From: Eukaryota sp. GEM-RC1 | Taxonomy: Eukaryota | Direction: 5' to 3' | Assembly (NCBI GenBank): GCA_040285855.1 | Contig: JAUFOQ010000010.1 | Span: 124,001 to 188,000 of the forward strand | DNA length: 64,000 bases | Shown: piece after piece, positions 3,387 to 60,985 of the stretch | Layout of the letters: each line of letters opens with the position of its first letter | Numbering within the stretch: position 1 is the first letter of the stretch | The notes under the pieces: generated by a model | Told to the model about the DNA's origin: nothing | The model's input: the letters and a program-made list of their open reading frames with translations, nothing else | Database searches by the model: none | Position numbers and translations under genes: made by a program

Positions 3387-5522
3387 GGGATAACTACAAA
3401 ATCCACCTAAGTACAATAAGTTTAATCAAAATCCACCCCAATTGTTTTCACCTTTTTTTGCTTCCAAAAACCACCTTCTTGTAGTCTTCTTCTTCTTCAT
3501 GACAGTTGGTTTAAATCTTAATAAACTCAAGTCCAATGAAGTGATTTCCATCGAAGTGAATCAGACTTATGAATCACGGTGTCATATGCTTCAAATCCTC
3601 CATCAATATGCCATCCAAGAAAACAAAGACTTTGTTCTGGCGAACAACAACAACAAAACTCGCTTCAAAATTGGGTGTGTAGATCCTAACTGTCCCTTTT
3701 TACTGAAAGCGATTTCTTCTGCAGGAACAGAACCATGAGTAGTGACTTCCTTTAATGCACACAACTCTCCCTGTGAAGCTAAAATTAAGACCTCTGTTCC
3801 TCCTAAAGTAGCTGCCTTAATACTGAAGGAAGAATTTAGACACTCTGGAATAGTCTCTCCTACTAGAATGCAAAGAATGTCGGAAATGCCTGTGACCCAG
3901 AACGCGTGTTCTAGAATGATTAAAGAAGCTCAATTATTGCTATATGGTGATAAGCAACACTCTTACAGTCTCTTGCCAAGGTATTTCCGTCTTCTGAAGG
4001 ATAAGATGCCAGGTACGGTGACTGTCATCGAGTCCGGAGATGATGGTGAATTTAGTAGATGTTTTCTTGCTTTTGAAGCATCCATCCAAGGATTTCAGTA
4101 TTGTAAGCCTGTAATTGGTTTGGATGGATGTCACATCAAGAGCCAATATCTCGGTGTTATGCTTATTGCAGTTGCAATTGATGCGAATGGCCACACGTTT
4201 CCGCTTGCATTTTCTGTTGTGGACACCGAAAGCACAGATACATGGACCTGGTTTCTTGACAACTTAAGACAAGTGTATGATTTATCTGATGTAACTATCA
4301 TTTCTGATAGACAGAAAGGTTTGATCAACGCTACCCGAAATGTTCTATCAGATATTCCTCATGCATTTTGTGTGAAGCATTTAGCCGACAACGCTAATGG
4401 AAGAGGCTCGAAAACGGCTAGACCATTCATCTTTCGTTTGGCAAAAGCTAAAAATGTTGCACAGTATGAAAACATCATGACAGAAATGGCAACAGTGTCG
4501 CAATCAGCCGCTGATTACATCAATCGAACTGCCAATCCGGAAAATTGGGTAGAATTCATGTTCCCAGGAAACAGATGGGGCCATACCACAAGCAACGTGG
4601 TAGAATCAGTGAATGCTGCTATTAACGAAGCACGCCAACAACCGATTGTACAAATGTTCGAAACTATTCGTGCTATGCTTGCAAGATGGTTTGTTACAAG
4701 AAGAAAGGAAGCTCGAGAAATCGCATTCCCTCTAGTACCAAGAGCATCTAAGATCTTGGAAGAAAGATTGTTGCTTGTACGAAATCTGCGTCATGTCGAA
4801 GTAGATATCAATGAATATGAAGTTTATGATGAAGGAAGGGTATTCAACGTGAATGTGGAGGACAAAAGCTGTACGTGTTGTGATGCTAAGGAAGGAATCC
4901 CATGTTCGCATCTGCTATTGCTACTTTCTGCTACTGGTTCAAGAGGGATCGAGTACTGTGCTAATCAACACACCACGTTGTTTTATTTCCGAACGTATGA
5001 AGGGAGAATTCTCTCAGTTGATGATGTACAACTTCGTCATTACTTGCTTGATGATGATGTAGAAGGAATTGTGTCTGGTCCACCTATTGCAAAGCCAAGA
5101 GTTGGTAGACCGAAGATTGTACGGATGAAGAAAAAAGCCGAACCATCTGCTGGAAAACCTCGCAAAGATCACAGGTCTTCTGATGAGCCTCCACTAAAAC
5201 GAACATATACATGTGGTAAATGTGGAGGAAAAGGTCATAGCAAGAGATCTTGTACTAGTAACTAAATAAATGTACCTGTAGTTTATATTTCAATCTGTAA
5301 GAAACTAAAGGTATGTAAAAGAGGATACAACATGAAGTACTGTTGGGGAAGAAGAAACGGTGTATGAAATGGAATAAAGTGGAGCAATCACATCATACGT
5401 CATCAGCTCATTTGTGGTTTTTCAACATAGAGTTGAGATAATGTGGATTTTGAATTTTTTTTCTTGAATCTTGGTGGATTTTGATTAAAAATATAGAACT
5501 TGGTGGATTTTGGTGTTGTCCC
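3387..5522 (+). mobile_element. Full-length Mutator-like element (MULE)
   Basis: ~50-bp imperfect TIRs (GGGATAACTACAAAATCCACC... and ...GGTGGATTTTGGTGTTGTCCC). Perfect 9-bp TSD TAATTAAAT at 3378-3386 and 5523-5531. Confidence 0.93.
3499..5265 (+). CDS. MULE (MURA-like) transposase with one in-frame TGA at 3736-3738
   Basis: N-terminal C-x4-C DNA-binding motif, DDE core (GLDGCH, ISDRQKG, CVKH, SNVVESVN), SWIM finger (CTCC...CSH) and C-terminal CCHC knuckle (CGKCGGKGHSKRSC). ORFs 3442..3738 and 3742..5265 are in the same frame. Confidence 0.92.
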
Positions 5523-16936: not shown

Positions 16937-17080
16937 ATGTGTTTGACTTGGGATCTTCTTCATTCACACGAAGATTTTCGATCTCTTCCCCTAAAACCCT
17001 CAGAAGACTTAAAAGTACGTGCTGTATGGAGGTATTTGTTCTTAGGACTTAGTCAAGAAGATACTGCCAGGATCTTCTGA
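16937..17080 (+). CDS. 47-aa helix-turn-helix-like mini-ORF
   Basis: PSEDLKVRAVWRYLFLGLSQEDTARIF, a paralog of 16695..16844. Confidence 0.4.
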   Translation: MCLTWDLLHSHEDFRSLPLKPSEDLKVRAVWRYLFLGLSQEDTARIF

Positions 17081-17082
17081 AA

Positions 17083-17185
17083 TACAACATTTGTAATGAC
17101 AACATTTGTAATGACAACATTTGGTGATATAACATTTGTAATGACAACATTTGGTGATATAACATTTGTAATGACAACATTTGAA
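17083..17185. repeat. 15-bp tandem repeat (AACATTTGTAATGAC / AACATTTGGTGATAT)
   Basis: About 7 units seen directly. Confidence 0.9.
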
Positions 17186-17289
17186 ATGAAAGTGTCGTAT
17201 GTGTAATGAATTGTTGACATTGATATTTTTTCACCTTCGATCTTTTGAATTGTTGACTATTTTATATTTGAATCTACAAAACTACAAGT

Positions 17290-17450
17290 GCTTTTTGTAA
17301 CACAAAATGTGTTTCACAAGATTCGTAACACAAGATGTGTTTTACAAGATCTGTAACACAAGATGTGTAATACAAGATTTGTAACACAAGATGTGTTTTA
17401 CAACATTTGTAATACAAGATGTGTTTTACAAGATGTGTAATACAAGATGA
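17290..17450. repeat. 14-bp tandem repeat (ACAAGATGTGTAAT / ACAAGATGTGTTTT)
   Basis: About 11 degenerate units seen directly. Confidence 0.88.
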
Positions 17451-19058
17451 AACTATCAAAATTACCTATATTTACCAATCTTTTCAAAATTAAATATAAT
17501 TCAAATAAAACACACATACCAGTCTTTTCATCATTTTTCAAATACTCTTTCAAAACATGAAACAATTCCACAAGCACATCACTACAATAACGTTCATCAA
17601 CATTATCCCTACCAATCACATCGGTAATGTAACAGTTTCTTATTGTTTTCACTTCCATACTTGATGAAGAATCAGACCGAATACAATCTAGTACATTATC
17701 GACAATTGACTGAATTCCAATAGTTAAGTCCACTCTGAGTTGTTTTGAAGTAGCAACACGATCATACTCCAAAAGAGGCGACAATGATATTGTTTCATAA
17801 GTCACATTGTCAGTTTGTTGATATTCACATATGGAATCACATTTTTCATTTTCGAAGCTTTCAGTCTGAACTTCCTTGAGACAAAATCGTTTTTCATCAT
17901 CAATAAGAGGAAATACCTGGGAACTTTTTCTTTCTGTACCAGCACTGACATTCTTATTTAATAATAAATTCTTCGTTGGTAAAGGGGTTTTCTTCAAACG
18001 GGGAAGTGATGGTAGAGTAATGTTGCCGCGTGGTAATTGAGGAAGAAATTTATTGACACAAATCTCAGGAGAATTTTTGTTAAAAATTGAGTCACAATTA
18101 ATAAATTTGGGAGGAATATTAGTTTCATCTTCTTCAAGTATTACTCAATTGCCAGGGAGATTTATTTTTAATCTAAAAAGATCATGAATGGCTTGTTAAC
18201 ATGAGACTTCGTTTAGGTTTTTGGCCATTTGGTTTGTTACAGAACAGCACGTGTATCTGTAAAAACAAACATAAGGCTAGCTTTCATCATTTGGTCAATT
18301 GTTCAAAGTTCATATATTGTCGTTCAATTTTGCACAACAGTCTTCGAGATACATGTTTGGAAATGTTTAAGGCAAATGGTTTCCATGGCAAAGTCGAACC
18401 ATTACTTTCTCATCTTTCAGATCACCCTGATTCTACTCAGAAACGTGGTGATTTTATTGGCCCTTGGTTGTCATGCCAAGAAATTGTTGTTGATTTTACG
18501 ACCGTTGATCCTTGCAAAGCTTCAGCTATTGCCAACATTTTGAATCCCTCAAATGATCCGCTGAAAGACGCTGAGAACGCCAAAGTGTCTAAGTATGGAC
18601 ATCAAGTTGCTGCATTGAATTCACGAAGACACAATAATATCGTCTTTCAGCCTTTTGCAGTTTCATTGTACGGAAATTTCGGTTCTTCTACCAAGGAGTT
18701 TTTAAGTTTATTTGAAAATTTGTGTTCAGAACTTGGCAAGAAGTTTAACAGATCGTACTGGAAGAGTAAATTTGCTTTTTCGATTTTTAGGTCTATGTAT
18801 AGATATGTTGATTCCATTTTGTCCAAGTTGTTTGGAGGCAACTACTTTTCGGAATTAGGTAGTTCGTTTGATAATTTGTTTTAATAGTGTTTATCTATTT
18901 GTACTTAACTTATTATGTGTTTTTCTCCGCACATAAATCCGTTTTTCTTCTTCAAGTTCATCATTTACAACAATGACACCTTCCAAAGTTCTTAAGAAAG
19001 AACAACATGAAATGGTTATCAGCTGCATGTAGATATCGCCATCAGTGTCAGAGTTCAT
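17398..19058 (-). pseudogene. Hypothetical host gene interrupted by a retrotransposon insertion
   Basis: Removing 18140-18957 gives a continuous frame from ATG 19058 (MNSDTDGDIYMQ...VNDELEEDETNIPPKF...) into ORF 17398..17997. Confidence 0.6.
18140..18945 (+). mobile_element. 5'-truncated CRE-like non-LTR retrotransposon, family C, with 12-bp TSD
   Basis: Cys/His knuckle-like region plus REL endonuclease (CICK...HHLVNC...HNSLRD...RGD...VDFTTVDP...KY). TCTTCTTCAAGT occurs at 18128-18139 and 18946-18957. A homologous copy lies at 57370-57990. Confidence 0.85.
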
Positions 19059-19072
19059 TATCAATTAACAAG

Positions 19073-19720
19073 CAGTGTTGCGCCATAACCGAAAATAAAT
19101 TTCCCATACGCGTATGGGCGTATGGACGTATGGGAAAATGGCAGAATGGCTGACAATGACCATCAATGCATATCTAACAGAATCTTTCCAACATCTCTTT
19201 GCTTCATAATGTATAAGTACCATCTCCTACACTCTCTATGTGTAGTTTCTCAGCCAGGTAAACCTCGTGCTTAAACAATTTGCCATCAAATTAGTATCAC
19301 AAGTATGCTCTGTAAGAGTGTGTGAAAGAGTTTGAGTACCCGCTCATTTATTCATAACAAACGAATAAACACACTTCTTTGTAGTTTTTTCCCTTTATAG
19401 ACCAGAAATAGTGAGACAAGACAAAAAAAGACACTTAAATTGGATCGTGCTAAGAAAACTGGTTTCTATACACTTCAATGGAACCCATGTCAAAAACACC
19501 CAGCAATGGCAGCAGAGACGGTATCCTGATAGTGAATATTTTTAAGAGGTGAAGTGGAGGTTTAGTTAAGTTTATTAATCCATATACTTATTAACATGTC
19601 ATAGAGTGCACGTGTCGAAGAAGTTCAAAAACAGATACATGTAGTCAACGTGCCATACGCGTATGGGTGTATGGACGTATGGCAGTCCATACGTGTATGG
19701 CAAACAATGGCGCAACACTG
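19073..19720 (+). mobile_element. Non-autonomous hAT element
   Basis: 14-bp TIRs CAGTGTTGCGCCAT / ATGGCGCAACACTG. 8-bp TSD TTAACAAG at 19065-19072 and 19721-19728. Subterminal CGTATGG repeats and remnant dimerisation-domain codons (LVSQVCSVRVCER, LDRAKKLVSIHFN). Confidence 0.92.
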
Positions 19721-19803
19721 TTAACAAGAAGTTGGCACAAAAAGTCAACTGTAGTCAGTTTACAGATATTCCTCTCTCAATATCAACTACGATTCTCTCA
19801 TCC

Positions 19804-22800
19804 ATGTCTCGCTGGATAAGCCACTCTTGTTGTTATTCCTCCACGTCCTTTCCAACCATACTTCACTGTATAAGTTGTGGTAGATTGGCTTGGGGTTTGA
19901 CTCTCGCTTTGGATGCTTCCCCCGCTTCAACGTACTCCACGTCCTTTCCAACCTTACTTCACTGTATGAGTTGTGGTAGATTGGCTTGGGGTTTGACTCT
20001 CGCTTTGGATGCTTCTCCCGCTTCAACGTACTCCACGTCCTTTCCAACCATACTTCACTGTATAAGTTGTGGTAGATTGGCTTGGGGTTTGACTCTCGCT
20101 TTGGATGCTTCCCCCGCTTCAACGTACTCCACGTCCTTTCCAACCTTACTTCACTGTATGAGTTGTGGTAGATTGGCTTGGGGTTTGACTCTCGCTTTGG
20201 ATGCTTCCCCCGCTTCAACGTACTCCACGTCCTTTCCAACCATACTTCACTGTATAAGTTGTGGTAGATTGGCTTGGGGTTTGACTCTCGCTTTGGATGC
20301 TTCCCCCGCTTCAACGTACTCCACGTCCTTTCCAACCATACTTCACTGTATAAGTTGTGGTAGATTGGCTTGGGGTTATCCCTCGACTCCGTCTCGGTAT
20401 ATTCCGTTCCTGACCGCAATTATAGTTTCCTTTGCTCAGATGATCCTTTCTGTTGTTTCATCATCTTTTTCTGCTTTGTGTCTCATATTACGTATAGTTT
20501 TCTCCTCCCGTCATCCATTCAAAGAAGACCTCACCGCCGACGGTGACATTGGAGTCCAATCCAGGACCGATTTCCGAATCAGCCTTACAGACTTTGTTGC
20601 CTGATGAGTGGATCGATGATGAAGTTATTGATCAGTATTGTCTGTATCTCTTAAACTTACATAATTATCCTGTTGAATGCTTTATTTCTCCGATTCTAAT
20701 GTTGCACAATGCTGTAGATACAACCACTCAACAATTTGATGTTGTTCTACTCACGAAGTTTATCATACAACAATTGACAAATAATGGTCATTGCCGATAT
20801 TTCATTGCTCCTGTTATTAATAATACAGGTACCAAAGGTTATCACTGGGGGTTGTTGATTATCGACTGTCAACACACAAAGTGGTTGTTCATTGATCCAA
20901 ATTACGACACTAATGATTTTTATCTAGATGAAGAAAACGTAGAATGTCCATCTGGTAGCTTCAATGTGTTCTTATCAACAGTGCATTCAGCACTTAGTGT
21001 GCTTGAGTATAGGCCTATCATTGTACCGGTTACCCAGAAACAAACACCTAATGACTGTGGAGTCTATGTTCTTGAGTATATCAGAATATTTGTACATGCT
21101 TTGAACTTTCGCAATATAGATAACGTTTCAGCTGTAATAGATGAATTACAGAATGCTAACAAATACATTGATGCTGGTTCAGTTCGAGAGACCATTATTA
21201 ATTTTTTTGTACAATCAACGGTAACGACTGTTGATCATCCTGAGTCACGTAAGTCCAAACCAAGAGAGCCATCTGGTGCTACTCCTGCAAAACGAAAATC
21301 AAAAATCAGTCCAGCCAGTCCATTACCACCTACAGTATTAAAACCCGTTCCTGTCACACCTATCCGTGTCTCCAAAAAAATCAGGACCACAGATCCACTC
21401 AGTCAATCAGGTCTTACTCCTCAAACACGAAAACAAAGAATTGTTTCTGAAAGTAAACAGACAATGCCATCTCAGTCACCTCCGTCAATACCTGAAGTGC
21501 AGCCAGAACAAGAACCCAATCAATCACAAAAGTTCTGTCTAATTGAGATAAAAAGTGTGATCTCAGATCCTGAACGCTTGAATCTTAAAGTCGTTCGAGT
21601 TAAACAGGAGCCAGAAGTAGACGAAGAGATTGAATCAACTTCAGAAGGTATTCCACAAATTCAGGATACTACTTTTGAAATTCAGCGTGATCCAGATTTA
21701 GATCCAATTGTGTCAATCTCTCTTCAGTTTACCCATGATAAATTTGCAAATGAAACTCACCTATTCACCCATAATGTTTCAGAAATTTCACTTCCTAATT
21801 GCGTAGTTCACACGTTTACAACTGAAAAATCAATGTTAACAAATTTCATTACATTTTTAAATCTTAACAAGCCCAGTTTGTTAATAAGTTATGATTGGCA
21901 TTTAGATACTTTTCCGTTTTTTGTATCACGATGTAAAAAATTAGAAATTGACATTGATTATACAATTGATGATTACATTTCTTCTCTTCCATCTTGGTTC
22001 CATAGATGGTGCAAACCAACGGAAATTGGTCCTTTTTATTCCCTTGACTTGAATTCAGTATTGAAGAAGTTGTATGTCTTTAGAAGAGGTCGGTTTTTGG
22101 AAAACGTGACAACAATTATGATGGACATGAATAATCATTCAAGAACATTTGAAAGTTTTGACAAGGAAAATATCTTCCTTAAGAGAATATTTCATTCTTT
22201 AGACAATCCTCTAGTGTCAGATGAAGAAATGAAGGTTAAAACCGAAGAACGTCAAAAAAAAGCGCCATCTGTGAAACTAAAACCCAAGGCTGTTATGGAG
22301 ATTCGATTGTTAGCAGAATTAACAAAACTTAATGAACTTTGGGAATCTAAAACTTCGAGAACCACTTCGAGAGCCACTTTGTTATCGAACTCAATCAATA
22401 AGTTGTTTCTAATACAATACATTCTCTTTGATCTTCTCGATGAAAAAAAGCAAAAATTAAGAGAACGACCACCAATGAAGGCGGTGAAAAACGATTAGAT
22501 AATGTTGTATCAAAGACTAAAGCGAATTGGATGGAATCTTGTGCTAAGAGAGCTCATCAAGTCAGAGTTCGTGGTACACATATGTTGAAACATTTTTTCG
22601 TTACTAAGTTTCACAACTCTCTAATTTTCGACAAGGTCAAAGAGATACTACCTCCCACTGTTAAAGAAGAAATTGAAACAGACACTGAAGTTTCAGACAC
22701 TGAACAAACAGAAATTTTAAGTGAAGAGTTTGTGCCTCAACAATTAGAAGAAGAAACTGAATTGCCTGTGACTTCGGACCCTGATTTTGGTTTGGATCGT

Positions 22801-25722
22801 AAAATTGAATCCGAAATTTCAGAAGAAGACAGCCAAATTTTAGAAGAAGGCAGTATTGAAAATGAAACTGGTGAACCTGAACTTGACCTTTTTACTAAAA
22901 TTCAAACTACCAAATTTGAATTACCAGACTGGGGAGCTTACTTTAAGTTGGGTCCAATGGGACAACTGTTGGCCATGATGTGGATTCCAAATCACCAATT
23001 TTTCAACAGTACTGATCATATTAAAACTGTGGAAAACTCGTTAAAAAACATCATTTCTAATGTTAAAACAACAACTACAAAGAAGGAGTTCGCCCAACAC
23101 TTCCTATCAAACTACATCCCTCTGTTAGAAACTGCTGGTGAAATGGTTGGTAAAGATAGGATCGTGTTTCCAAGTGGACTATATTTGGCTAATCCTCTCG
23201 GTTACGTTGCAACCGAAATTATTACTAATTATAAGAACAACATGAGCCAACACTTTCATGAGTATGTTTTTCAAGTCTTTAACTTGGTTACTCAAAAGAA
23301 AGAGAGAATGGAAGCTCTTACTGACAAAACCCAAAAACAAGAACTCTGTCAAAGGATTAATGAAGTTAGAGAACTGATCGTTAATGGGGAAATTTCCAAA
23401 ATTAATTTTGATGACAAGCAAGTTTTTACCAATCCGGAATCTCACTTGAGTATATTATTCTTCAATTATTTGTTTAATTATTTTGAAGGGAAGATGGAGA
23501 AAACGATCTACTATGCCGAAAAGAGTGATCCGTTATACTTTTTAAGTCATGCACTGTATTTGAACCGTCTCATTGAAGACTATTGTCCTGGTGTAAGAGC
23601 AAACAATCCTTTCCCATTGTCTAAATCTTTAATTCCAAATCATATCAGATTTGATACACAATGGTTTCATTTAATATTTAGGAAGGATATTCCCCATGCT
23701 GTTAACTATAATGATGTACGGAAAAATATTTGGGAATCCATTTTAAAACCAGGGGGGTATTCCAGAGTCATTATCCTATGACTTTAAATACACTTCAATT
23801 TCGTCAGACGGTTTAAGTTGTAGTTTATTAATGATGCGGAAAGATTTACTTGATGAAAATGGAAATACTCGTGAAAACGTAATAGCAATCGATCTTGCTT
23901 CAAATGAGCGTTATATTGATTCCTTAGGTATGACGGAAATTGAAGAACTGAATTTAAAATCTAAGAGAATTGTTGCTGTTGACCCCAACCAACATGATCT
24001 AATGTATTGTGCAAGTTTAAAAACTGATGAGGAAGAGAAGTGTGAGAAATTTGAAGTTGATGAAACAGAAAAATTGATAGAAAATGCAATGGTCAATGCT
24101 TGTGAAAATGTTACAGGAGTTGATCCAGATTCCTCAGGTGAGAAGGAAATTGAGCCCAAGCCAGTTACCCTAGTTAGAAAAAGAAAGATTGCTCCATTGT
24201 CTTCTAAAAAAAGAGGAAGTTTGAAAAAATGAAAAAACAATTAAATGATTGGAAGCAAGACACTAACCCACAACCTGTAAAGTGGAAAAATCGTGACAAA
24301 TGGAAGGTGTTCCGATACACTGCTGGGGAGAGAAAGGCAGATATTAACAAATCTAGATGGAAACCAAGAAAAAATCAGCCATCACAGTTCCAAAAAAATT
24401 GACAAAGAAACAAAAAAAGAAAAAAAGCTAAAAGGAACGAAAGAAAAAAAGAAATTTTGAAAAAAGTGAAAGGAAACGTGGCAACAGAGGAATTGTCAAA
24501 TTGACCGAAAGCGAACGATTACAGAGGTACTCAACTGAGTTTGAAAAGAGTGTGTGGAATGGTCAAAAAGTACTGGATTCCTACAGTTCTGATACTCCAA
24601 GAAGAAAATCATGCAAATTGGAAGAATTTTCAAGGTACATGGTTAACAATGAAGTTTTCTGTGCATTAATGAGATCAACCACAACTGGAAAAGCAACTGC
24701 TGAAGGATTACCTAAAAAGAAAGGACCATCTAAGAATCTATCTAAGAAAGGACCATCTAAGAATCTATCTAAGAAAGGACCATCAAAGAAACTACCTAAG
24801 ACAGGACCAACTCAACAAATACCTGCTGCAGCTGAAGGTCTTTATGAAGAGAAATTTTTTAGACGTAGACGCCTTACCCAATATTCAAGAAAAGAACGAA
24901 GTGAGCAAAACTTGGTCCACAGATTAGCTCTCCAATATGGTGATCCAGATGAAGTCGTTGTTGGTTTTGGGGATTGGAATGACGCTCTATTCCGAAGAAG
25001 AAGGGGTAAGGCAAGTACAGTAAAGGGTGCTACTCTTCGAAACTTACTAAGAAAATTTGGATTTAAAGTTTTCTTAGTTGATGAACTTATGACCGGCAAA
25101 TGTTGCTCTGCTTGTGCTGATGAAAACCAGGAAGGTATATGTTCTAGTCCTGACTTTGTCAAAGTCATTGATCCTCTATGGAAGAAGAAGTTACAGAAGG
25201 AGGAGAAGAAATTGAAAAAAGAAATTATGGAACACAATCAATTAGACCATGTTGTGAAACGTAATTTTGATGATGAATGGACCAAACAGTTGCCATTCAT
25301 GAAGGAAAGATTGAAGAGCAAAAAAGTCTCACCATGGGGCTTAGTTCAGTGTGCTAAATGTCATGTCCTCTGGAATAGAGACTTCAACTCTGCTTTTAAC
25401 ATTTATAACATTGTAAATGGAATTATCCAAGGTCAAGGTAGACCTACTGTCCTCGAGAGACCAAAATCTCAAACAATAACTATCGAGGATGGTGGGATTA
25501 CAGATCAGGTTCCCAAGAAGAAGAGTGTGAGTAAGTGTCAGTTTTGTCATATGGAAGGCCATACAACGGCAAAGTGTCCTCAAAGACCTGTGCCTCCTAA
25601 AAGTCCCTCGCAAATGTAGTGAATGTAGGCAACCAGGACATGATAGAAGAAATTGTCCAAATAAGGCCCAGAAAGATGTACCCAAAGACTCACAAGTAGA
25701 GAATGAAGAACCGGAATCCTGA
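19804..25722 (+). CDS. Frameshifted polyprotein: repeats, 2A, Ulp1/SENP protease, degenerate PolB exonuclease, Fanzor1-like RuvC nuclease, two CCHC knuckles
   Basis: Protease: HWGLLIID, FIDP, QKQTPNDCGVYV. Exonuclease-like: DPIVSIS...FTTEKSML...KPSLLISYD. Fanzor: ISSDGLSCSLL, RuvC-I IVAVDPN (D 23981), FRYT, FGDW, FLVDELMTGKCCSAC (E 25083), CAKC..LWNRDFNSAFNI (D 25380). Knuckles: CQFCHMEGHTTAKC and CSECRQPGHDRRNC. Frames join at 20551, ~22490, ~23755, ~24210, ~24370-24460 and ~25600. Confidence 0.85.
19840..20377 (+). repeat. 96-bp tandem repeat, ~5.6 copies, in frame as a 32-aa unit
   Basis: Units start at 19840, 19936, 20032, 20128, 20224 and 20320 and encode STSFPT(I/L)LHC(I/M)SCGRLAWGLTLALDASPASTY. 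Confidence 0.97.
20480..20569 (+). other. 2A/StopGo-like ribosomal skipping motif, split by one extra G at 20551
   Basis: GAC CTC ACC GCC GAC GGT GAC ATT [G] GAG TCC AAT CCA GGA CCG reads DLTADGDI-ESNPGP, matching the D(V/I)ExNPGP consensus. Confidence 0.8.
24713..24810 (+). repeat. 27-bp coding tandem repeat (KKGPSKNLS) inside the Fanzor region
   Basis: AAGAAAGGACCATCTAAGAATCTATCT repeated about 3.5 times. Confidence 0.85.
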
Positions 25723-25920
25723 ATCTTATAAGTTAGCTCGTCCTAAAAGGCTTGCAAATGAGTGGCACAATGTGTCAAACTGTGGTGATAGTGCATATAG
25801 GTGCATTTGAAATGAAATCCACAGGAGTGAAAGGCACTTTCCTTGTTCACTTTGTGTCTTGGCAAACTGCTTTGAATTCTGTCATCTTGTTTAGACTTCA
25901 ACTATATCTGGCGTTTTATT
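25723..25920 (+). ncRNA. Candidate Fanzor omegaRNA scaffold
   Basis: Lies directly 3' of the nuclease stop. Stems: TGGCAC/GTGTCA, CTGTGG (25780)/CCACAG (25819) enclosing GTGCAT-ATAG-GTGCAT, and AGTGAA-AGG...CCTT-G-TTCACT. Boundaries are uncertain. Confidence 0.45.
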
Positions 25921-26177
25921 GAAATCACAGTTCTCAGTTCTTGAGATTTACTTCTATGATTAGTTTAATCTGCGACATTGCGTAGAAAAGAAATTAAGAG
26001 ACATGCCTAAAATTGGGAGGGGACATGCGTAATAATTCTCATGATTAATTGAAAAAGTCTTTCCTTTTCTAAAATAGTAAATACATATTTTGTTTTTAAA
26101 TTGTTGCTAACTCGCAGTTTTCTCTCTTTAAAGAAATTCCCCAACATTAGTTAATTCTTCTTTCCGTTCTATTTCCA

Positions 26178-26324
26178 ATGCCCTGCACTAAATCTATCAA
26201 AGAACATACCAGACTCATTGAAGAATCAGCAGCCACAATCATACAAGCAGCAGCAAGAGGACATGAAACCAGACGAAAGTTCAAACAAACAACAAGTAGT
26301 TCATTCAAAGAACAACGACAATAA
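26178..26324 (+). CDS. 48-aa IQ-motif micropeptide
   Basis: MPCTKSIKEHTRLIEESAATIIQAAARGHETRRKFKQTTSSSFKEQRQ*, containing a canonical IQxxxRGxxxR. Too short to appear in the ORF track. Confidence 0.6.
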   Translation: MPCTKSIKEHTRLIEESAATIIQAAARGHETRRKFKQTTSSSFKEQRQ

Positions 26325-26349: not shown

Positions 26350-26901
26350 TTATCTACTTACAGCATGTTTGACCAACCAATGTAGTACATTGTCAATTCG
26401 AGTCATATTTTTACAAGATATATCATAGCAGTCCACTTGTCTATCTGTTATGCTGTCCAAACCAAGAACTTCTACCAACTGAGTTGCAGACAATGCATTT
26501 GGAAGATCGTTCTTGTTACCTAGAACTAATACTGGGATGTTGGCCAGGGAAGCTTTGGAGAGCAAGCTGTGGAGGGCCTCTTTGGAGTCAGCATGGGTAT
26601 CGTGAGCAGCAGAGTCCACCATGTACACAATAGCATTGGTTCCTCTGCAATAACGTTCCCATTGACTTCGGAACCTCGATTGGCCACCAACGTCCCACAG
26701 CTTGATACTGACGTTACCACGTTGGACACGTTGTACTTGAAAGCCGACTGTGGGTATTGTATTGACAGAAAACTCACCAGTAGCACAGACGTTGACGAAA
26801 GTTGTTTTTCCGGAATTGGCAAGACCAACAAGACTAAGTTCCAGTTCCTGTTTCCAGAAGAGTGTTTTAAGCCATTCAAGGAGGCGTGCAAAGAGGTTCA
26901 T
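26350..26901 (-). CDS. ARL8: ADP-ribosylation factor-like GTPase Arl8
   Basis: [50 protein letters not shown] and LGNKND are characteristic of Arl8. Confidence 0.95.
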
Positions 26902-28414
26902 AAGGAACAGGAAGTTGGCTTCAGAAAAAGTAAATGAACTTTCGGTCTGGTGCATTTGTATATTGTTCCTGTGTACTGACTTTTACACACTTCTAAATAC
27001 GGATGCCCGTAGTAACGGTTTGATGATACTTATTCACATTGTTTCTAAGCGTTTTTGGCTACTGTTCTAGTGTTGCTTGAGTTTTCAGTGACATTAAAAC
27101 AAAACAAAACAAATAAATACCAAATTAACAAGTGAACACAAATCCAATTCGTTGTCAATTATGACCATACAATCTGCCTAATGATGTCCAGTGAAACAAA
27201 TATTTCACTGAATGTTTCATCGTTTACTGAGTTGTAACCATTACATTACTATAAGTATTTGTTCTTCTAATTAGCATACTAATTCAGGACTTTGAACATG
27301 TCTAGAATTATCTTCTATCTGTCATGAAACCTAACCAGGTTACTACTAGAAAGGTTCACTTCCTTTTCAGTAGGAACCTTCCTAGTAGTACACTGAAAGC
27401 TACTGAAACAGTCCCGTTGAATCGACTTCACAACAAGGATGTTCCTGTTCAGCACTGTGATTTAATCCACTCATTATTCACAATTAAATATTAAAATTGG
27501 TACTTTTTTTGAGACACATATACCAAAAACCAAACGGCAGAGAAATTCAAATTTTTGAAAGCATCATTTTGTTCTTAAATGCCCGATCTACCACAATTAT
27601 CCGCAACTGCTCTGCAGATACGTCAGAATCTTGAAAGACTTTTTCTCTGCCTGTGCTGGAAGCACCCTAGATCAAAAGATATCTTCATCCAATGCCCCAG
27701 ACGGAGATAAACCGAAATACCATGAAATACGACAGTGGACTAACAAAATCATTCACAACTCAGCAACCGATCTTCGGAAAGAAAGAGGAAAAGCTAAGGA
27801 ATATCAAGACTTCTTGAAGTATAAGAGGAGTTTCAAGTAATCTGATCTCTCCCCTTTCTATCCTCGAAGAAATCAGTGAACAGTCTTTGCACAGTCCTCA
27901 GTTTCTTCTTTGTACATCACTTCTACTTAATAAATTGCCTTGTCCTTGGTGAAAAGGTCTGTTTTTCAAGACACTTTACATTTCTTCACCTCTTTCAAGG
28001 ATTAGTGAAGTATCTAGATACATGTATCAAGAACTTCACATCAAATAGGTTTTATATCAAACAAGACAAAACGGGAGAGCCAGAAGGAACAACAAAAAGC
28101 TTTCTCACTGATAAACAATGAACAAAAATGAGATAATAATTAATAATTGATTGTATAAAACGTTTTTTGATTTTTTGGAACTGATTTCAATGAAATTACA
28201 GTTACATGTACACGTAGGTTGTTATCTTTCCATTCAGGTCATTAATTCAGTTCTAACTTCTAGTTATGTTATTATTGAGAAGTCTAATATGATGAAATTT
28301 GCGAAAAATGTTCATCCAAACAAGCCCTTTGAAAACCGTTTCCACAGAACAGTATTTGTTTGACACTGTTTAAAATTGAAAAATTTCAACTTACAAAGAA
28401 CTACTAGTGCTTCA

Positions 28415-30650
28415 ATGACTCACATCGATTTCCCAGACAGCTTCTTATGTCCAATACACATGGGTTTACTTCTTGATCCCGTTGTTTTGACTTGTGGCCA
28501 TTCATTTTGTAAGGAATGTGTTCAACAGTGGATGATCCACAAGCAGACTTGTCCTACATGTAGAAAACCAACTCAGGGTCGACATCTTGCAAAGAACTAT
28601 CAACTTAGAGATCTCATTCGTGATGTACTTCAACATAATGTGATACGACCAACAGATCTCAAAAAAGTGTCTCAAATGATTCGTACACCACGCGCTACTG
28701 TTGATGTTGGTATTTACAATAGACGTGAAATCATCTGGAAGAGGCCATTCTATTCTGAAGCAGACATTGAAAAAGTCAAGGAAGCCGTTTCCAGTATCCA
28801 CCGTACCTTCAAAGCTCTAAACTCTCCTAGTAATGTTGTGAATGTATTAGGTATAACTCTTGATCCTCCTGGTATTGTACAAGAACGTCTGAGTTGTTCT
28901 CTTCAAGATTTCTTCAACTCAAAGACGCTCATCAGTGAAGACAAAGCCAATATCATCATAGAAGACATAACTTCCGCTCTCCTATCTTTTCATACTGCTT
29001 CTTTTGTCCATCGAGACATTTCTGCTGGAAATGTATTGCTACAAGTACGTAACCATGACATCATACTTGCTAAACTTGGAGATTATGACGATTCCCGTGC
29101 ATCCGATGCCACCCTAACTCAATCTACACTCGGAACAGTCGCTTACATGGCCCCAGAAGTACTGTTGGGGAAATGTCTCAAAGCCAGTACCGAAGCAGAC
29201 ATCTTCTCTCTTGGAGTTTTGTTCTGGGGAGTCTTAACTAACAAAGATCCTTCTAAAGTCGTTTCCATATCCGCCCGCCTTCAAGCTGATAGAATCACCA
29301 GACAGGGTTCCGCTCTAATTGACTTAGACTTACTGTCAAGAAAATGGAAAGTATTGGTCAGATCGATGGTTAGCATTGAACCCAAGGAAAGACCAAAAAT
29401 AGACACCGTACTTGAGAATGTCAAACGATTGCTTAATGACGTGACGATAGGACAAAGTAATACTTCAGCTGAAGAATTGTACAGTCGTGGTCAAAGATAC
29501 TATAACAATGGAAAATATGCTCTGGCTATACATTGGTTTACAAAAGCTTCTGCTTTAGATCACGCAGAAGCCATGTATAAACTAGGTTTTTGCTATTATA
29601 CCGGAAAAGGGACAGACGAAGACCCAAAACAGGCAGTTATTTGGTTTCAAAAATCATCTTTTTTGGTAATTCTCGTGCTATGAATGCCTTAGCTGAGTGT
29701 TTTAAAACTGGGAAGGGATTCAAGGAAAAGACAATGACCAAGCTGTTTTTTGGTATGAACGGTCGGCTTCCCTAGGCAATACTAAGGCTATGTTTACTCT
29801 GGGGCTGTGGCTTAGTTCAGGGATAAGAGTTTTAAAGGATTTGAACAAGGCTTTTCAATGGTTTCCAAAAGGCTGCTGATTTGGGTCACGCGTATTCAAT
29901 GTATAATTTAGGGTCTTGTTATTACAATGGACATGGAGTTGCAAGGAATTATCAACAAGCAGTTCATTGGTATACAAAAGCTTCTGATAATGGCAATGCT
30001 GAAGCTATGTTTTCATTAGGAAAATGTTATTTATTTGGTCAAGGAGTATCCAAGAATTTTGGACAAGCCGTTCATTTGTTTAGAAAAGCTTCTGATAATG
30101 GTAATGCTGAAGCCATGTTTTCATTAGGTGATTGTTATCAATTTGGTATTGGAATTTCAAAAGATTCAATTATGGCTATTCATTGGTATAAAAGAAGTGC
30201 AGATGCCGGCAATTCTACTTCAATGAATAGTCTTGGAAATTGTTATTATAATGGTGTTGGAGTTTCAAAGGATTATAAGCATGCAGTTTATTGGTTTCCA
30301 AAAAGTCCTCTAGGCTAGGTAATGCTGAATCAAAATCTAATTTAGGCAAGTGTTATTATAGTGGTAATGGAGTTTCCCAGGATTTCAAAAAAGCATTTGA
30401 TCTGTTTAAACAATCTGCAGACCTTGGGTATTCTGATGCAATGTACTTTGTGGGTTACTGCTATTATAATGGAAAAGGAGTGGCAAAAGAGTTTGAAAAG
30501 GCCATTCTGTGGTTTGCAAAGGCTGCAAAATTAGGTAATTCTTATGCTCGCGGTATACTTCAAAACTATTACACTTTAAAAGGTGGACAAAATTTAATAT
30601 TTTGGATACTAATCTTTTCGCCACTGTTTTTGTTAAGGATGTTTCTATGA
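28415..30650 (+). CDS. RING finger, protein kinase and Sel1-repeat protein, frameshifted in the Sel1 region
   Basis: RING (CPIH...CGHSFCKEC...CPTC), kinase (HRDISAGN, DYD, GTVAYMAPE), multiple Sel1 repeats (LG.CYY.G.GV..D...A..W) and a hydrophobic C-terminus. Confidence 0.88.
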
Positions 30651-34375: not shown

Positions 34376-35653
34376 CAGTTACAAAAATTGTAGCGGTGTT
34401 TGCAAGATTGAAAACCTAAAAAAGTAATTAGTGTTTTTATTTGTTAAAAAATCTATCTTAGTTTTTAAACTGTCAACTTGGGTTGGTGTGCAAGCCAAAG
34501 GTGTTAAAAAACTCCTTCATAAACACACCGTTCCAGTTCTACAACATTTAAAAATTGAGTTTGAAACGAACATTTTAAATTTACTTTCAGTGACCTTTTG
34601 GACCATTCCAACAGCGATCACCATCTTTAAAATGCCAAAAATTCAATAAATCGGAAAAATTTTCGTCAAAATTTCCTAGAAAAACTTTGCTTCTACCTTC
34701 GGCTTGATATGCTTTCGAGAACAACGAAACTTCATAAGTATAATCTTGACTCACCGAGAAAGATTCTCCTAATAATACTAAAAATGCTTCATCATTTGAA
34801 AATTTGAAAAACTTGAGCACTTTACTATACCGTTCAATGTCATTTTCCAAGTCCGAAATTAGTTCTTCTAAATTACTATTGAAATTAGAATTTTCAAAAT
34901 TTGAAAAAGATGGGATATTTGAAGATTTCTTAAACAAATTTAAATTACTCAATTTTTGAAATAAGGAGGTTAAAAAGCTTCCCTTAGTTTCTTGCAAACT
35001 TTTAGCTTTCTTTAATTCCATCGACAAATTTTCGAATTTTTCAACTAAATCAGAGTCAATTTTGGGAAAGTTTTCAAATATTCCAGAATCCAATATTTCA
35101 GAATCCAATTTTTCTTCATCAATTTCTTGATCCTGTTTTTCCTTGAGAGACATTGAAAGAACATCTTTAGCGCTGAGTAGAATATTTGAATATTCATCAA
35201 ATTTTAATTGGGCTTCCCTCAACAGTTCTTTTCCATCATCTTTCATTTTATGTCTTTCTTTAAGTCCCATTTCAATTACATCTAGTTCCTCTTGCAGGTC
35301 AAGAGCAGTAGTTTTAGCTTCCTCATAGCACGTGTTGATGCAATCAGAATCGATTGACGACGACTCGTCTGAGCAATCACAACAATCTTTATGACCATCA
35401 TTGACCTTGGAAAAGAAATGTATTTACCTTGAAGAGGTTTAGAGGGACAAAAGAAGCCTGGAAGAGCATCAGAAGCGATGCCAGCGCAAGCATCTGTCTG
35501 AAGTTCATCAGATCCATCAGGACAATCGCAGAAGTGGTCATTGACAGAAGAAGTGGGAATGACTCTTGATCCATCAAAGCAGGAAAACTCACCACTGGCC
35601 AGAGAAATCGCTATCAGATGGAGAAATATTAGTAGTAGATGTGTTTGTGCCAT
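34376..35653 (-). CDS. Glucosidase II beta subunit (PRKCSH-like), frameshifted
   Basis: Signal peptide, CFDGS...VNDHFCDCPDGSDE...AC, a coiled coil and an MRH domain with GDRCWNGP. The 3' end is approximate. Confidence 0.85.
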
Positions 35654-35694
35654 TGGGAGACTTCTAAAAAATTCAACCAACCCCACCAACTTTT

Positions 35695-36942: not shown

Positions 36943-37175
36943 GTTGTAAATAATTGCAATTTTCTGTTTGTATATTTGTGTATTCTTTATTTTGGGATTG
37001 ATATAAATTTGTGTTACAGTATTTTCAGCGATTTGAAGCAAACATTAAGTACTTGCAGTAGTTGTGTTGTTTAAAAGGAAAGGTTTCCTTGATTCCAATC
37101 GGATTTGTTTCCAATTGGTCTTTTTCCATTCAGTAACATTAGTTTCTTGTCTCATTTGTTCCTTCGTCCTCTTCT

Positions 37176-40100
37176 ATGGACCTCTATACTTATACCAAAG
37201 ACCTACAATGCAAACATCCTTTTCATACAATTAAATATAAACGATCGCCAATATCGCTCCGCTTTAAAGACAGCAGTCTCGAAAAGCGCTTCCGAGGTCA
37301 TCTCTCCTCCACCAGAGGTTCCCACACTCGCATCACCACTGCTCTCCTGGGTTTCATGTTCATCGTTATACAGCTCTTTGCCCAGTTCCATTTCTCCTTC
37401 ACAGATCCTTTTGTCTACTTCCTCATCGGATTGGAACTTTGGATCTTCACCATGCTCTGTACTTACAAGTCCTGCTCCCCCCTCTACTTTTTCGCTGTTT
37501 TCACTGTCGTGTCATCACTAGCTGTCACCACCTTCTACATTTCCCCTTACCACGGTCTATTCACTCTTCTTCTTCCTGTCATACTTCTCTTCACTTCCGA
37601 TACTCTAGCTTGGTTCCGAGGGTTCCTCTTTATTACAGTCATCACTATCATCAACGTAATCCACGTAATTACTTACAAAACTTCTTTCCAATTCAAAGCT
37701 ACTGTCACCACGAGTCTGGTGGCTTTTGTTTTACTTAATTTGTTGTTACATAGATTTGCGGAAGTCCAAGTGAGAAAGTTTTGGACAGAGATAATTGAAT
37801 TAGGAAAACTCAGGAAAAGATCTTCCACTTTGTTGAAGATGATCATGCCAATTAAGGCTTGGAATAAAGATCTTTCAGCCTTCCAATGTGATAACTCCTG
37901 TGTTATTTTTGTTGAAGTCGTCGGAATTCCAGATGTTGACGTGTTCAAAGCCCCTTCAGAATATATTCTAATTTTGAATAGAATTTTTAATTTAATAGAA
38001 GATTTGGCTAAGGAATATGGAGTATCCAAGCTCAAAACTGTCCAACACGTGTTTATTGGGACAACAGGAGTTGATGAAAATTTAAATTCTCCGAAACAGT
38101 CTAAAAATTCAAAAGTCAAAAAAGTCATGATTACCAATTCCGAGCTCTCTCGTTCTCGATTGCTTTAAGATACGTGATGTCTAACCTAAATAGCTCTGCA
38201 CTTTCCGTTTCGGGAGAACCAATCAATCAGTTAGGGGTCAAGGTCGGAATCTCTTTTGGGCAAGTTGCTGCTGGGGTGATTGGAAGTGATAAAGTACTTT
38301 TGACATTCTCGGAAATACTGTAAATTATGCATCTCGACTCTCTAAATTTTCAAATTTTAATGAAATATTTGTTTCACAATCGTTTTATCTCACTTTTAAA
38401 CAAATTTCTGATTCAAAAACTTCTAGTGTCTGTTATTTCGAAAGATCTAAAGCGCCCGTTCCAATCAAAGGTATTGGGGCAGTTACCGTGTACAGGGTGG
38501 TGGTTAAAAACTCAATTAAAGGGGCAATCATGAAGCATTGTCGTCTTTTACCAAATTCTTTTTGGATTGATTTTAGATTTTCAAAACTGGCACAATTCAG
38601 CAATTATTTAAAAAATTCAGACAGAAGAGCTGCTTACTCTCCGGTTCGAAGTCGTCGACACTCACTTCCAAATATTGAAATCTTTAATGATGACGTATTT
38701 GATAGTCTAGAAGGAATTCCAAAATCTCAAAGTTCCTCCAATTTTTCAAATCTTTCCAGTGAATTATCTACTGGATCTAATTGTGGTTCAAAATTTCGCC
38801 TTAATAATTTTGAAAAATCACATAGTTTTATAAATATTGAGAAAGCTGTCGAAAGGGCTCATCATCGATTATCAGTCAGTCAAAATTTGGCTGAAGAAAT
38901 TCATGTAGATGCACCTCCGCAAAAAGCGAAATATATTTACAATTTTAAAAATATTCGTTCCTTGGCCCTTAATGATTCCTTTTCCCACGCTGACAGTGAT
39001 AATTCCTTAGATTTATCATTTAGAAATTTTGATTTTGAACGATTTCAAAATGCTTTTCTTGTTTCAAAAATCTCGGATCTTGATACCATGGAGAAAAAGC
39101 ATCTGGTAAAAAAGTCAACGCATTACTTCTTGGAAAATATTCTTGTCATTGCTTAATGGCAATTTTGGATTTTTATCCAGATTTTTAGCAAATTTGACTG
39201 GTAGTTCGTTGCAGAATTCTTCACTTTCTGAGTTGAATTTTGAAAATTTTGTTAATTCCAACAAGTTTTCAATTTGGTACAGGATTTGGCTTTTCGTTGC
39301 ACTTTTCTTTCCTTTTTTACTTGCAGAATACCAGTTTTTTTGGGACGTTGGATTTTCCACTGTTAAATACTTTGTATTTGGTTCTTCTTTATTCTTTCCT
39401 TTATCATTTGTCTTTCTCTGGATTCCCTTATCTTTTAAATATTGCGGCAATTTTTCAAAAATGTTGGAACTCAAAATTTTCAAGTACAATATGACCTTAA
39501 TTCATTATTCTTTAATCATTTCACCGTTGATTTCTCTTATTGCTGTTGATTATCTTTCTGATGCGAGAAGCAAAATGGTTTTTTCTTGTTTTGCTGTAGT
39601 ATCTTCTATATCATTTGGAACTTTCTTCGGTGCATTAGGAATCCACGAGACTTGGTTCAAGAGACACGTCATGATTACGTTGATTGCAATCATTTTTGAT
39701 CTATTTACATATGGATTTTCGTTCAAACTGAAGTTTCCTTCTCATTTTGATCTCTTTGCCAGCATGATTTTGGTTTTTGGTCTGATTCTAGGTGCTTTCA
39801 AGCTGTGTTTACTTTCACTTAGACGTCAGCCCACAATTGTAACCACAAAGCTATTAACTCATTCATTTGAAAGATATCAAATTCTATTATCAAGTATTTT
39901 GCCAAAACCTTTGTTAAATCAAATCACAAATCATTCAAAAGTTTCCAATATTTCCATTTTTTCATCTCTTCGACCTATTTTATCTCCATCTTTTAGCAAT
40001 TGTACTATTATTTTCATTGATGTTGCATCTTTTACTTCCTATTGTGCTTCAAAAAGTCCCAAACATGTGTTTTCAATGCTCAACGAGTATTTCAATCATT

Positions 40101-40586
40101 TTGATCAATATATTGCTGAATCTCACTATGTTTCCAAAACTTCGAACTATTGGTGATGCCTATGTGGCAGTGGCTGGACTTGATGGTAGTTCGCTTGAAA
40201 CTCATATAACCGACGTAGTTAAGTTCTGTGTATTGGCAATCAAATCAGTAATTGAGCTCAGTTTCCTTAGAGCAGAAGCTCTTCAGGTCAGAATTGGAGT
40301 CGATTACGGTCCTGTTTTGGCAGGTTTCCTTGGAAGTCATTTGATTTCTTATGATCTCTTTGGTCCGGTAGTTTCTAGAGTTTTTGAGCTTCAGGAAGAA
40401 TGTGATTTAAATCACGTATTATTTTCCGAACGTGTTGCAGAAGTGGCTGAAAGCTCAAAAAGTGACTATCAAGTAACGTTCAGTTCTAAAAATAGAAACG
40501 GTCGGCAATTGAAAAGTGTCACGGATTTTGATGGTACTTTAACCATGTTGTGTGGAAATTCGTGTTCTTGTCATTCAAATATTTAA
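37176..40586 (+). CDS. Membrane-bound class III nucleotidyl cyclase (TM-cyclase-TM-cyclase), frameshifted
   Basis: Two TM blocks. C1 has CVIFVEVVG...KLKTVQHVFIG...VKVGISFG..AAGVIGS (degenerate). C2 has TIIFIDVASFT...LRTIGDAY...VRIGVDYGPVLAGFLG..YDLFGP. Confidence 0.85.
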
Positions 40587-52043: not shown

Positions 52044-52118
52044 TGTCAGAAGAAAAGATGGTTTAGTAGGAGGGTTCAAGCAAATTTTGCAAGACGAAAC
52101 TTGAACACTGTGGTCTCC

Positions 52119-60100: not shown

Positions 60101-60134
60101 AAAAACTTTTTCGTTTTAAATGTACCTTTGTATA

Positions 60135-60985
60135 TAGTGGACCTTCTGGATCTATTTCTTAAATTCCAAAGGTGTTTGGATTACATCTATCTGATGAAGC
60201 TTGGATGATTAATATGCGTCTTCGTTTGGCTATTTGGCCTGCAAATTTATTAAACTATTCAACTTGCTCTTGTGGAGCTAATGGTGTTTTTCATCATTTA
60301 ATTAATTGTCGTTCTTTTATTCATCTACGTGCAGTAATTCATGATGGTGTGAGTGATTCTTGTTATTCCATGTTTAAAGCACATGGTTTTCACTCTAAAG
60401 TTGAACCAGTTTTGATTCATCTTTCAGAAAATGAATTTGCTGATCAAAAAGAGGGGATCTCCATACTCCGTGGCTCAAATCGAGTCAATCATTAATGGAT
60501 TTTACTACAGTAGATGTTTGTAACAAATCTTGTGTTAGTATGATATTAGATTCGTCTTATAGTCCGTTAACGGCTGCTGAAAAGCTCAAACACTCCAAGT
60601 ATGACTCTCAAATAGAAGAATTAAATCGAAACTCATATTCCAAATTGTGTTTCAACCTTTTGCTGTTTCTCTTTTTGGATCTATTAGTCCTGCTGGTGAT
60701 CAATTTTTCAAGGATTTCGAAGAATTGTGTAACGAAAAGAAGCGTATGTTTAGAATGGCTGAATGGAAAAACCGTATAGTGTTTTCCATACATCGGAATA
60801 TGCCTTTCTATTTCTCTCGATTATTTGAGAAATTGTACAAGTTTGATGTGAAGGTTAATGTTGAAAAAAGTAATCATTTACCGGGTGGTGGTGAAGCCGT
60901 TTGGATCTGATCATAGTATTATTTGTTTGTTCTTACAATTTCATAGTTTTGTAGGAAGGTTATCTTGTCGGGTACCGAATAAAGA
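60135..60985 (+). mobile_element. 3' portion of CRE-like family A
   Basis: ORF 60172..60495 is identical in protein sequence to 41824..42147. Ends in the family 3' UTR with AATAAAG. Confidence 0.85.

Follow-up and report, generated by a model that had tools for sequence, protein, structure and literature searches.

The 64,000-nucleotide stretch of Eukaryota sp. GEM-RC1 DNA analysed here (hereafter the window) carries, on its forward strand, a Fanzor1-type nuclease gene joined to a 2A leader, a Ulp1-type protease domain, an exonuclease-like domain, and two zinc knuckles. We hold with moderate confidence that this locus is one copy of a non-autonomous, likely selfish, multi-copy DNA element whose Fanzor1 enzyme, released at the 2A motif, would home under the guidance of an omegaRNA, and that its reading frame is broken by assembly errors.

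Domain order and the Fanzor1 core

Between the ATG at 19804 and the stop codon ending at 25722 lie 1,973 raw codons on the + strand, interrupted by six frame shifts and one in-frame TAA, in line with the frame of about 1,950 codons proposed when the window was first read from its letters alone (the sequence-only reading). The parts follow one another in this order:

19804..20526, + strand: leader before the 2A motif, in which a 96-bp unit is repeated 5.6 times in tandem (19839-20377) and which also has a hydrophobic tract
20527..20569, + strand: 2A (StopGo)-like motif GD[IV]ExNPGP, interrupted by a single base near 20551; ribosome skipping is predicted
20570..21210, + strand: Ulp1/SENP/NEDP1-type (C48) cysteine protease domain, supported by Pfam, a predicted model, and a fold match
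21211..21530, + strand: Ser/Pro/Lys-rich linker, predicted to be disordered
21531..22476, + strand: family-B DNA polymerase 3'-5' exonuclease-like domain, supported by Pfam, alignment, and a profile match
22477..25470, + strand: Fanzor1 (WED, REC, RuvC, and TNB zinc finger) with long insertions; holds four frame shifts and the in-frame TAA
25536-25577 and 25615-25656, + strand: two CCHC zinc knuckles, separated by the shift at A4 25599-25602
25720..25722, + strand: stop codon, aligned with the C-terminus of the sister proteins
25723..26040, + strand: 3' region, likely non-coding, where the omegaRNA and the right end are expected

The motifs quoted in the sequence-only reading were all found on the + strand where it had placed them. 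The motif positions are DLTADGDI (20527-20550), ESNPGP (20552-20569), ISSDGLSCSLL (23798-23830), IVAVDPN (23969-23989), FRYT (24310-24321), YGDPDEVVVGFGDW (24936-24977), FLVDELMTGKCCSAC (25071-25115), CAKC (25350-25361), and WNRDFNSAFNI (25371-25403). That reading carried the protein to 25920, whereas the protein stops at 25720-25722; since the sister proteins end at the residue matching this stop, 25723-25920 is likely non-coding, and the frame at 25737-25922 was rejected as coding because the sisters terminate at the earlier stop. The fetched sisters carry one CCHC knuckle, as against two in the window copy. A 27-bp tandem repeat at 24717-24824 encodes a Lys-rich insertion within RuvC, and the fetched sisters are without this insertion.

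The piece encoded by 22444-23778 matches only three Fanzor1 structures in the PDB, with SpuFz1 first (8.1e-6), and SpuFz1 is also the top PDB match of the piece encoded by 24510-25469 (9.1e-8). The observation is more than chance: two non-overlapping pieces each rank SpuFz1 first and cover it in order, and the piece 20498-22495 clears the Pfam thresholds for Peptidase_C48 and DNA_pol_B_exo1 given below. The piece 24432-25616 scores just below the Pfam cut-off for Cas12f1-like_TNB. The catalytic residues are Asp (23981-23983), the alternative Glu (25083-25085), and Asp (25380-25382), and neither the RuvC D-E-D nor the zinc finger is disrupted; in the alignment to SpuFz1, the Glu lies six residues ahead of the C4 zinc finger (CSAC...CAKC), which is followed by the RD of WNRD. 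RuvC-I reads DPN as in SpuFz1, and among the fetched proteins DPN occurs in 70 and DPG in 38; a D-P-G fingerprint at RuvC-I defines the TnpB family (PMC10711439). The predicted model of an intact relative is confident over the Fanzor part, with a template modelling score (target) of 0.76-0.78 to SpuFz1, and each of the seven structures that it matches at E <= 0.001 is a Fanzor1 (3e-23 to 9e-17), Fanzor2 appearing at 0.022. The protein is, on these comparisons, a Fanzor1 of WED-REC-RuvC-TNB order, the full fold being modelled on the relative and the window copy assigned by pieces, and RNA-guided cutting of DNA is predicted for it.

Among copies that are about 90-95% identical (proteins P0182-P0198, P0005, P0171-P0173, and P0202-P0207, judged by eye), changes cluster in WED after IRFDT (23662-23750) and less in a REC helix (about 23190-23205). 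The variable WED segment aligns to the region of SpuFz1 that reads the target-adjacent motif (TAM), the REC helix likewise falls in a TAM-contacting region, and diversification of the target motif is a possibility that the alignment suggests.

The 2A motif of the window conforms to the consensus GD[VI]ExNPGP, taken from PMC3708506, and motifs of this type occur in 18 fetched proteins; according to the same source, the motif by itself is not sufficient for skipping. The leaders ahead of it consist of tandem repeats that differ from copy to copy, and the repeat unit varies between sisters. No second 2A motif was found in the six frames of the window.

The protease domain matches Pfam Peptidase_C48 (1.4e-6, above the cut-off) on the piece 20498-22495, and the expected His (20843), Asp (20894), oxyanion Gln, and Cys (21056) are present, together with the features of the clan CE fold. 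Its predicted model has a predicted local distance difference test (pLDDT) value mostly of 75-90 across residues 11-220, and the best fold match of this model is NEDP1 (4.8e-8), followed by Ulp1. The domain is predicted to be of SUMO/NEDD8 type, with SUMO, NEDD8, or ubiquitin as candidate substrates. Ulp1 is optional within the family, in which 0, 1, or 2 domains occur, and in the tandem double-Ulp1 copies (P0179, P0180, P0187, and P0189) the second domain has Ser for the catalytic Cys.

The same piece, 20498-22495, matches Pfam DNA_pol_B_exo1 (2.6e-6, above the cut-off), and the best solved match of the exonuclease domain is Pol delta (profile E 2.9e-8). The ExoI D-x-E, ExoII N-x3-D, and ExoIII Y-x3-D motifs are kept in all six aligned relatives of the intact family, and all four exonuclease acids are lost in the window copy and two aligned sisters. 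Judged by these residues, the window copy is catalytically degenerate and not an active DEDDy 3'-5' exonuclease, and its subfamily has lost the exonuclease acids and gained Ulp1. Across the junction of exonuclease and Fanzor, the two families align collinearly with 28-29% identity, which suggests that the two domains were likely fused long ago and only once.

In the profile and structure comparisons that the sequence-only reading had proposed, Fanzor1, Peptidase_C48, and DNA_pol_B_exo1 were all matched, and the Fanzor identity it gave, with the 2A, Ulp1, PolB-exonuclease, and CCHC parts, is supported by Pfam, PDB, and motif evidence. Its PolB-exonuclease-like domain stands as a Pfam and profile match, but without the catalytic residues in the window copy. 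Three points escaped that reading: the contrast between the dead exonuclease of this subfamily and the intact one of relatives, the optional nature of Ulp1, and the aberrant motif next to the catalytic Glu.

Frame breaks in the window copy

The six frame shifts lie at GG (about 20551), A5 (22487-22491), G6 (23752-23757), A6 (24224-24229), A6 (24369-24374), and A4 (25599-25602), and the in-frame TAA at 24429-24431 lies amid A-runs; homopolymers of at least four bases hold six of the seven breaks. Junction patterns were run over 217 fetched proteins, and the numbers reading through the joins are seven at the 2A motif, eight between the exonuclease and Fanzor, eight at G6, four at 24224-24229, four over the A-rich region, and 16 at the join leading to the final knuckle. 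These read-through proteins are relatives annotated in genomes of the metamonad Skoliomonas. The single long frame of the sequence-only reading is thus borne out at each join, two of the joins being read through only in another subfamily. Because sisters read through the break at 22487, a short intron was rejected as its origin.

Four host genes in the window, whose junctions were picked from overlaps of open reading frames (ORFs) and judged by eye, show no fewer than 10 shifts of a single base over roughly 11-12 kb, as against seven breaks in 5.9 kb of the element. They are the following, all with frame shifts at homopolymers:

28364-30650: RING-kinase-Sel1 gene
34500-35692: glucosidase II beta gene
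37143-40586: adenylate/guanylate cyclase gene
47344-52181: dynein heavy chain gene

Because these genes break in the same manner, the seven breaks in the element are likely assembly errors, as the relatives also indicate. Further premature ends recur in four, two, and two sisters, and since the window and other copies read through those sites, a systematic homopolymer error is the simpler explanation.

It is unlikely that the breaks are real, the window copy being then a decayed relic or the A6-TGA at 24224-24232 a programmed ribosomal frameshift that would limit the output of nuclease. Such an origin would account for the shared residue at which the window and four sisters of its subfamily stop, and it would agree with an aberrant motif after the catalytic Glu (LMTG, discussed below) and with the insertion of a miniature inverted-repeat transposable element (MITE) some 60 bp upstream of the point where similarity to a sister protein begins; for the single site 24224-24232, a real or programmed break is possible. 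It agrees poorly with the position of six of the seven breaks in homopolymers of at least four bases, with the like breaks in dynein heavy chain and other host genes, with the read-through in the window copy of other premature ends shared by sisters, and with the intact Ulp1 residues and RuvC D-E-D. The assemblies of the named relatives, furthermore, were built from Nanopore reads with Illumina correction (PMC11316075).

Family, flanks, and mode of spread

The closest named relatives come from Eukaryota sp. GEM-RC1, TZLM3-RCL, and TZLM1-RC, which are Skoliomonas, free-living anaerobic metamonads (PMC11603281, PMC11316075). A search of 1.84 billion representatives gave 829 matches, among them a relative of 1,473 amino acids (aa), and its two clusters comprise 10 proteins that bear the name Eukaryota sp. 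TZLM3-RCL. Five of these are complete ORFs (1,394-1,491 aa) that consist of leader, 2A, Ser/Pro linker, exonuclease, and Fanzor1 without Ulp1; a sixth TZLM3-RCL protein (1,494 aa) stops just past RuvC-III. The C-terminal pieces form clusters of 26, 5, 3, and 1 sequences, which among the matches listed (15 of the 26 in the largest) are all GEM-RC1, and the N-terminal pieces comprise 26 sequences in nine clusters, among the matches listed all named GEM-RC1. As pieces of one copy may count twice, "tens of copies" is the safe figure. In a length-limited search with the N-terminal piece, the 10 homologues found are all members of the Skoliomonas Fanzor family. In a quick tree built from 77 of the 122 rows, with support given only by the Shimodaira-Hasegawa-like approximate likelihood ratio test (SH-aLRT), the window and nine Skoliomonas-named proteins lie on one side of a branch with an SH-aLRT of 92.

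Outside this family, scans based on alignment yielded 80 loci from metagenomes and 52 from viruses, with a best-segment identity of 25-41%, none of them a close relative, and a viral scan queried with one sister protein gave no match. These 132 loci yielded 131 Fanzor ORFs, none of which contains NPGP, and an exonuclease match is absent from all the loci. The 112 closed ORFs from metagenome and viral loci have a median of 659 aa and a maximum of 1,050; the longest metagenome Fanzor ORF (1,050 aa; L013:717-4013) has no additional Pfam domain. Only one of the best 150 library matches exceeds 913 aa, and it is this same protein that alone carries an exonuclease among the 38 proteins scanned in Pfam. 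An Atlas search with the relative gave Fanzor-like clusters of 618-804 aa (scores 0.75-0.76), which serve as a lead only.

The search for other copies that had been proposed for this locus thus yielded tens of near-identical family members. The dispersed copies are 86-96% identical over aligned parts, with leaders swapped and domain content variable. Such numbers of dispersed, near-identical copies favour a selfish element and disfavour the other option of the sequence-only reading, a domesticated effector. A host effector for programmed genome rearrangement or chromatin editing would be in keeping with an old fusion, a Fanzor part kept across three named genomes, and a protease of chromatin type, yet it is very improbable in view of the many dispersed copies, their identity, the swapped leaders, and the variable domains.

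The element is flanked by the following features:

19073..19720: MITE of 648 bp, with perfect 14-bp terminal inverted repeats starting CAGTGTT and an 8-bp duplication TTAACAAG at 19065-19072 and 19721-19728
26178-26324, + strand: small ORF, which bounds the element on the right
26350-26982, - strand: Arf-family GTPase gene (Pfam), which bounds the element on the right

The MITE, which we take to be hAT-like from its features, has internal subterminal repeats that are palindromic, and its ends do not recur elsewhere in the window. It was rejected as the left end of the element because it possesses two ends and a duplication of its own. The small ORF presumably carries an IQ-like motif, and the GTPase is presumably Arl8-like. 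From the MITE (19720) to the host gene (26178) the sequence contains no transposase, so the absence of a transposase of its own, noted in the sequence-only reading, holds for the window copy; nor did Pfam scans of fetched family members reveal a transposase or reverse transcriptase (RT) domain. Within the 3' region, the best of 46 folding windows (z -2.15) contains three adjacent stem-loops at about 25763-25850, which are a candidate omegaRNA only; three Rfam matches on the 3' region are all far under the gathering score. No poly(A) tail follows the ORF.

The window also holds eIF4E, a MULE transposase, and RT fragments besides the Arf-family GTPase and dynein heavy chain, and is eukaryotic by this content. 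The MULE transposase, with a SWIM finger, lies at 3739-5265, 14 kb from the element, and no link between them is shown. Fragments of a family of retrotransposons without long terminal repeats (non-LTR), containing RT (Pfam), lie at 18177-18884, 41673-42185, 44161-44916, 57018-58980, and 60134-60983 and are up to 100% identical between copies; their C-terminus we take from its motifs to be of restriction-like endonuclease type. At 17067-17477 and 61534-62486 there are short arrays of tandem 14-15-bp units as well as TGAAC-rich repeats, with an integrase-like ORF (62477-63124) nearby.

In the mechanism that we favour, the ribosome would read through the variable repeat leader and skip at the 2A motif, releasing the enzyme. 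Fanzor would bind an omegaRNA from the 3' end of the element, with a guide extending into flanking DNA, and would cut chromosomes without the element at that site, after which repair would copy the element back (restorative or allelic homing); a homing role of Fanzor is reviewed in PMC13565253. In the ancestral form, the fused 3'-5' exonuclease may trim cut ends or flaps and so prevent simple re-joining, and in the subfamily of the window the exonuclease may serve as a scaffold or a DNA-binding relic. The protease may remove SUMO or NEDD8 from proteins of chromatin or of repair, countering SUMO- or NEDD8-based control. New insertions would need a transposase in trans, like other Fanzor-only elements (PMC10432273).

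The last step could be dispensed with if the element were self-sufficient, i.e., if an RNA-guided break, end preparation by the exonuclease, and copying by host repair into partly matching sites sufficed for spread without a transposase. We regard this as improbable. The absence of transposase and RT domains from every family member scanned, the lack of inverted repeats above chance, the tens of copies, the intact exonuclease residues of one family, and the variation of near-identical copies in the WED segment, which in solved Fanzor1 structures reads the TAM, all accord with it; the most-copied subfamily seen, however, has a dead exonuclease, break repair requires homology that is missing at new sites, and known Fanzor-only elements are treated as non-autonomous (PMC3627910).

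Mobility through RNA, provided in trans by a non-LTR retrotransposon from which the 5' repeats, 2A, Ulp1, and CCHC parts would derive, is quite unlikely. Non-LTR ORFs do bear N-terminal 2A motifs (PMC3708506, PMC13405545), NeSL and Utopia elements have an N-terminal Ulp1 (PMC4640811), the leaders vary between copies, and RT fragments are present in the window. On the other hand, the six frames of the window hold no other 2A, the element shows no DNA similarity to the retroelements of the window, its ORF has no poly(A) tail behind it, and no RT or endonuclease Pfam match was found in the element or in the scanned family members. The homologues of the N-terminal piece noted above all stay within the Fanzor family, Helitron-like DNA transposons also bear Ulp1 (bioRxiv 10.1101/2024.02.08.579435), and a 2026 review, in its covered parts, sees no evidence of retrotransposon-encoded Fanzor (PMC13565253).

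Several observations weigh against a homing Fanzor1 element broken by assembly errors. At the ends, terminal inverted repeats are not above chance (11 matches, control mean 11.1), no target duplication was found in the window copy, and the 3' region as a whole folds no better than shuffles (z 0.41). As to the frame, joins four and five are bridged solely by the second subfamily, which is about 45-57% identical there, and four sisters of the same subfamily stop at the window's own residue, the A6-TGA site 24224-24232; the likely status of the breaks as errors derives from related proteins and host genes rather than from reads at the locus. The exonuclease part is of low confidence in both predictions (pLDDT < 50). 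The motif after the catalytic Glu, moreover, is LMTG in the window copy as against FKTS in the sisters. TS was found in 161 of the 165 fetched proteins with the motif, the sisters among them, and TG in none of the 165, a count that leaves out metagenome and viral loci chosen by a pattern containing the motif, which would be circular; ELMTG, given as typical of Fanzor in the sequence-only reading, is therefore aberrant. The [TS][TS] motif of Bao and Jurka before the zinc finger is present in the family and absent from the window copy (TG). This motif and the nearby MITE suggest that the window copy may be a weakened nuclease.

Relation to known systems and significance

With Fanzor1 proteins such as SpuFz1, GtFz1, and PpFz1 (PMC10432273, PMC11423790), the element shares the WED-REC-RuvC-TNB order, the Glu, and the RD, and Spu-1 is likewise multi-copy without an internal transposase. 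Most Fanzor1 proteins have 600-700 aa (PMC11423790), whereas the relatives have 1,400-1,500 aa and the window copy about 1,970 codons, with 2A, exonuclease, optional Ulp1, insertions, and CCHC added; inverted repeats of 30 nt were not found at the window copy. The unclassified Fanzor1 elements MCi-2, MCi-5, and CRe-1/2/3 share a conserved 3' part that codes for Fanzor, an exchangeable 5' part, and the lack of clear terminal inverted repeats, and no fusion to 2A, a protease, or an exonuclease is reported for them in the covered parts of their description (PMC3627910). Duplications and Helitron-type ends belong to those elements as well.

The ExoI-III acids of family-B DNA polymerase proofreading exonucleases are shared by the six aligned relatives, but no polymerase domain follows, and the exonuclease ends directly at the first Fanzor WED strand. 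Non-LTR retrotransposons with 2A (L1Tc, Ingi, CR1, and L2) share the position of 2A near the N-terminus behind a leader, and NeSL, Utopia, and Helitron-like elements share Ulp1 as a transposon accessory domain. In contrast to these non-LTR and Helitron-like elements, the family has no RT, apurinic endonuclease (APE), restriction-like endonuclease (RLE), or RepHel domain, and its downstream enzyme is Fanzor. DEDDh nucleases occur in P and piggyBac (PMC3627910). Each accessory part is thus already known from other mobile elements. An exonuclease has also been paired with a RuvC nuclease by engineering, in the T5 exonuclease-Cas12f fusion exoCasMINI (PMC12337685) and in a trial of T5 exonuclease on SpuFz1 (PMC13434818); those fusions are man-made with a 5' exonuclease, whereas the present one is natural and of the 3'-5' DEDDy type.

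The sequence-only reading knew of no account of this architecture, and none was found in the searched literature. A Fanzor with 2A, Ulp1, or an exonuclease is not described in the searched full text and Fanzor supplements, with figures, Repbase, and most subscription journals lying outside the search; Fanzor is not mentioned in the covered main text of the Skoliomonas genome paper (PMC11316075), and "Metamonada" was not found in the searched supplements of PMC10432273. The family is apparently an undescribed Fanzor1 lineage with a natural exonuclease fusion.

The finding extends the range of Fanzor1 to metamonads, and the Skoliomonas family bears on two open questions, the roles of Fanzor in its hosts and the spread of Fanzor-only elements. 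The family is young and multi-copy and lives in culturable free-living protists with public genomes. Its members differ in the state of the exonuclease, which is intact in some and dead in others, and in the number of protease domains, from zero to two, and it constitutes a natural experiment in which the parts of end processing and of SUMO/NEDD8 removal in homing are directly testable; the intact relatives, such as KAL0224747.1 and KAL0211645.1, rather than the window copy, are the best subjects for it. Intact members of about 1,400 aa, about twice the usual size of Fanzor1, may represent a natural RNA-guided endonuclease that carries a 3'-5' exonuclease of its own. Rather doubtful, in our estimate, is the bolder view that skoliomonad Fanzors are transposase-free, RNA-guided selfish elements whose 2A-released enzyme would cut DNA guided by an omegaRNA, trim the cut ends by means of a captured Pol-delta-type exonuclease, and remove SUMO or NEDD8 marks through its protease, thereby driving its own copying, with the TAM-reading WED segment diversifying among copies to reach new sites; if the transposase-free reading were true, the intact family would represent a natural eukaryotic endonuclease-exonuclease editor.

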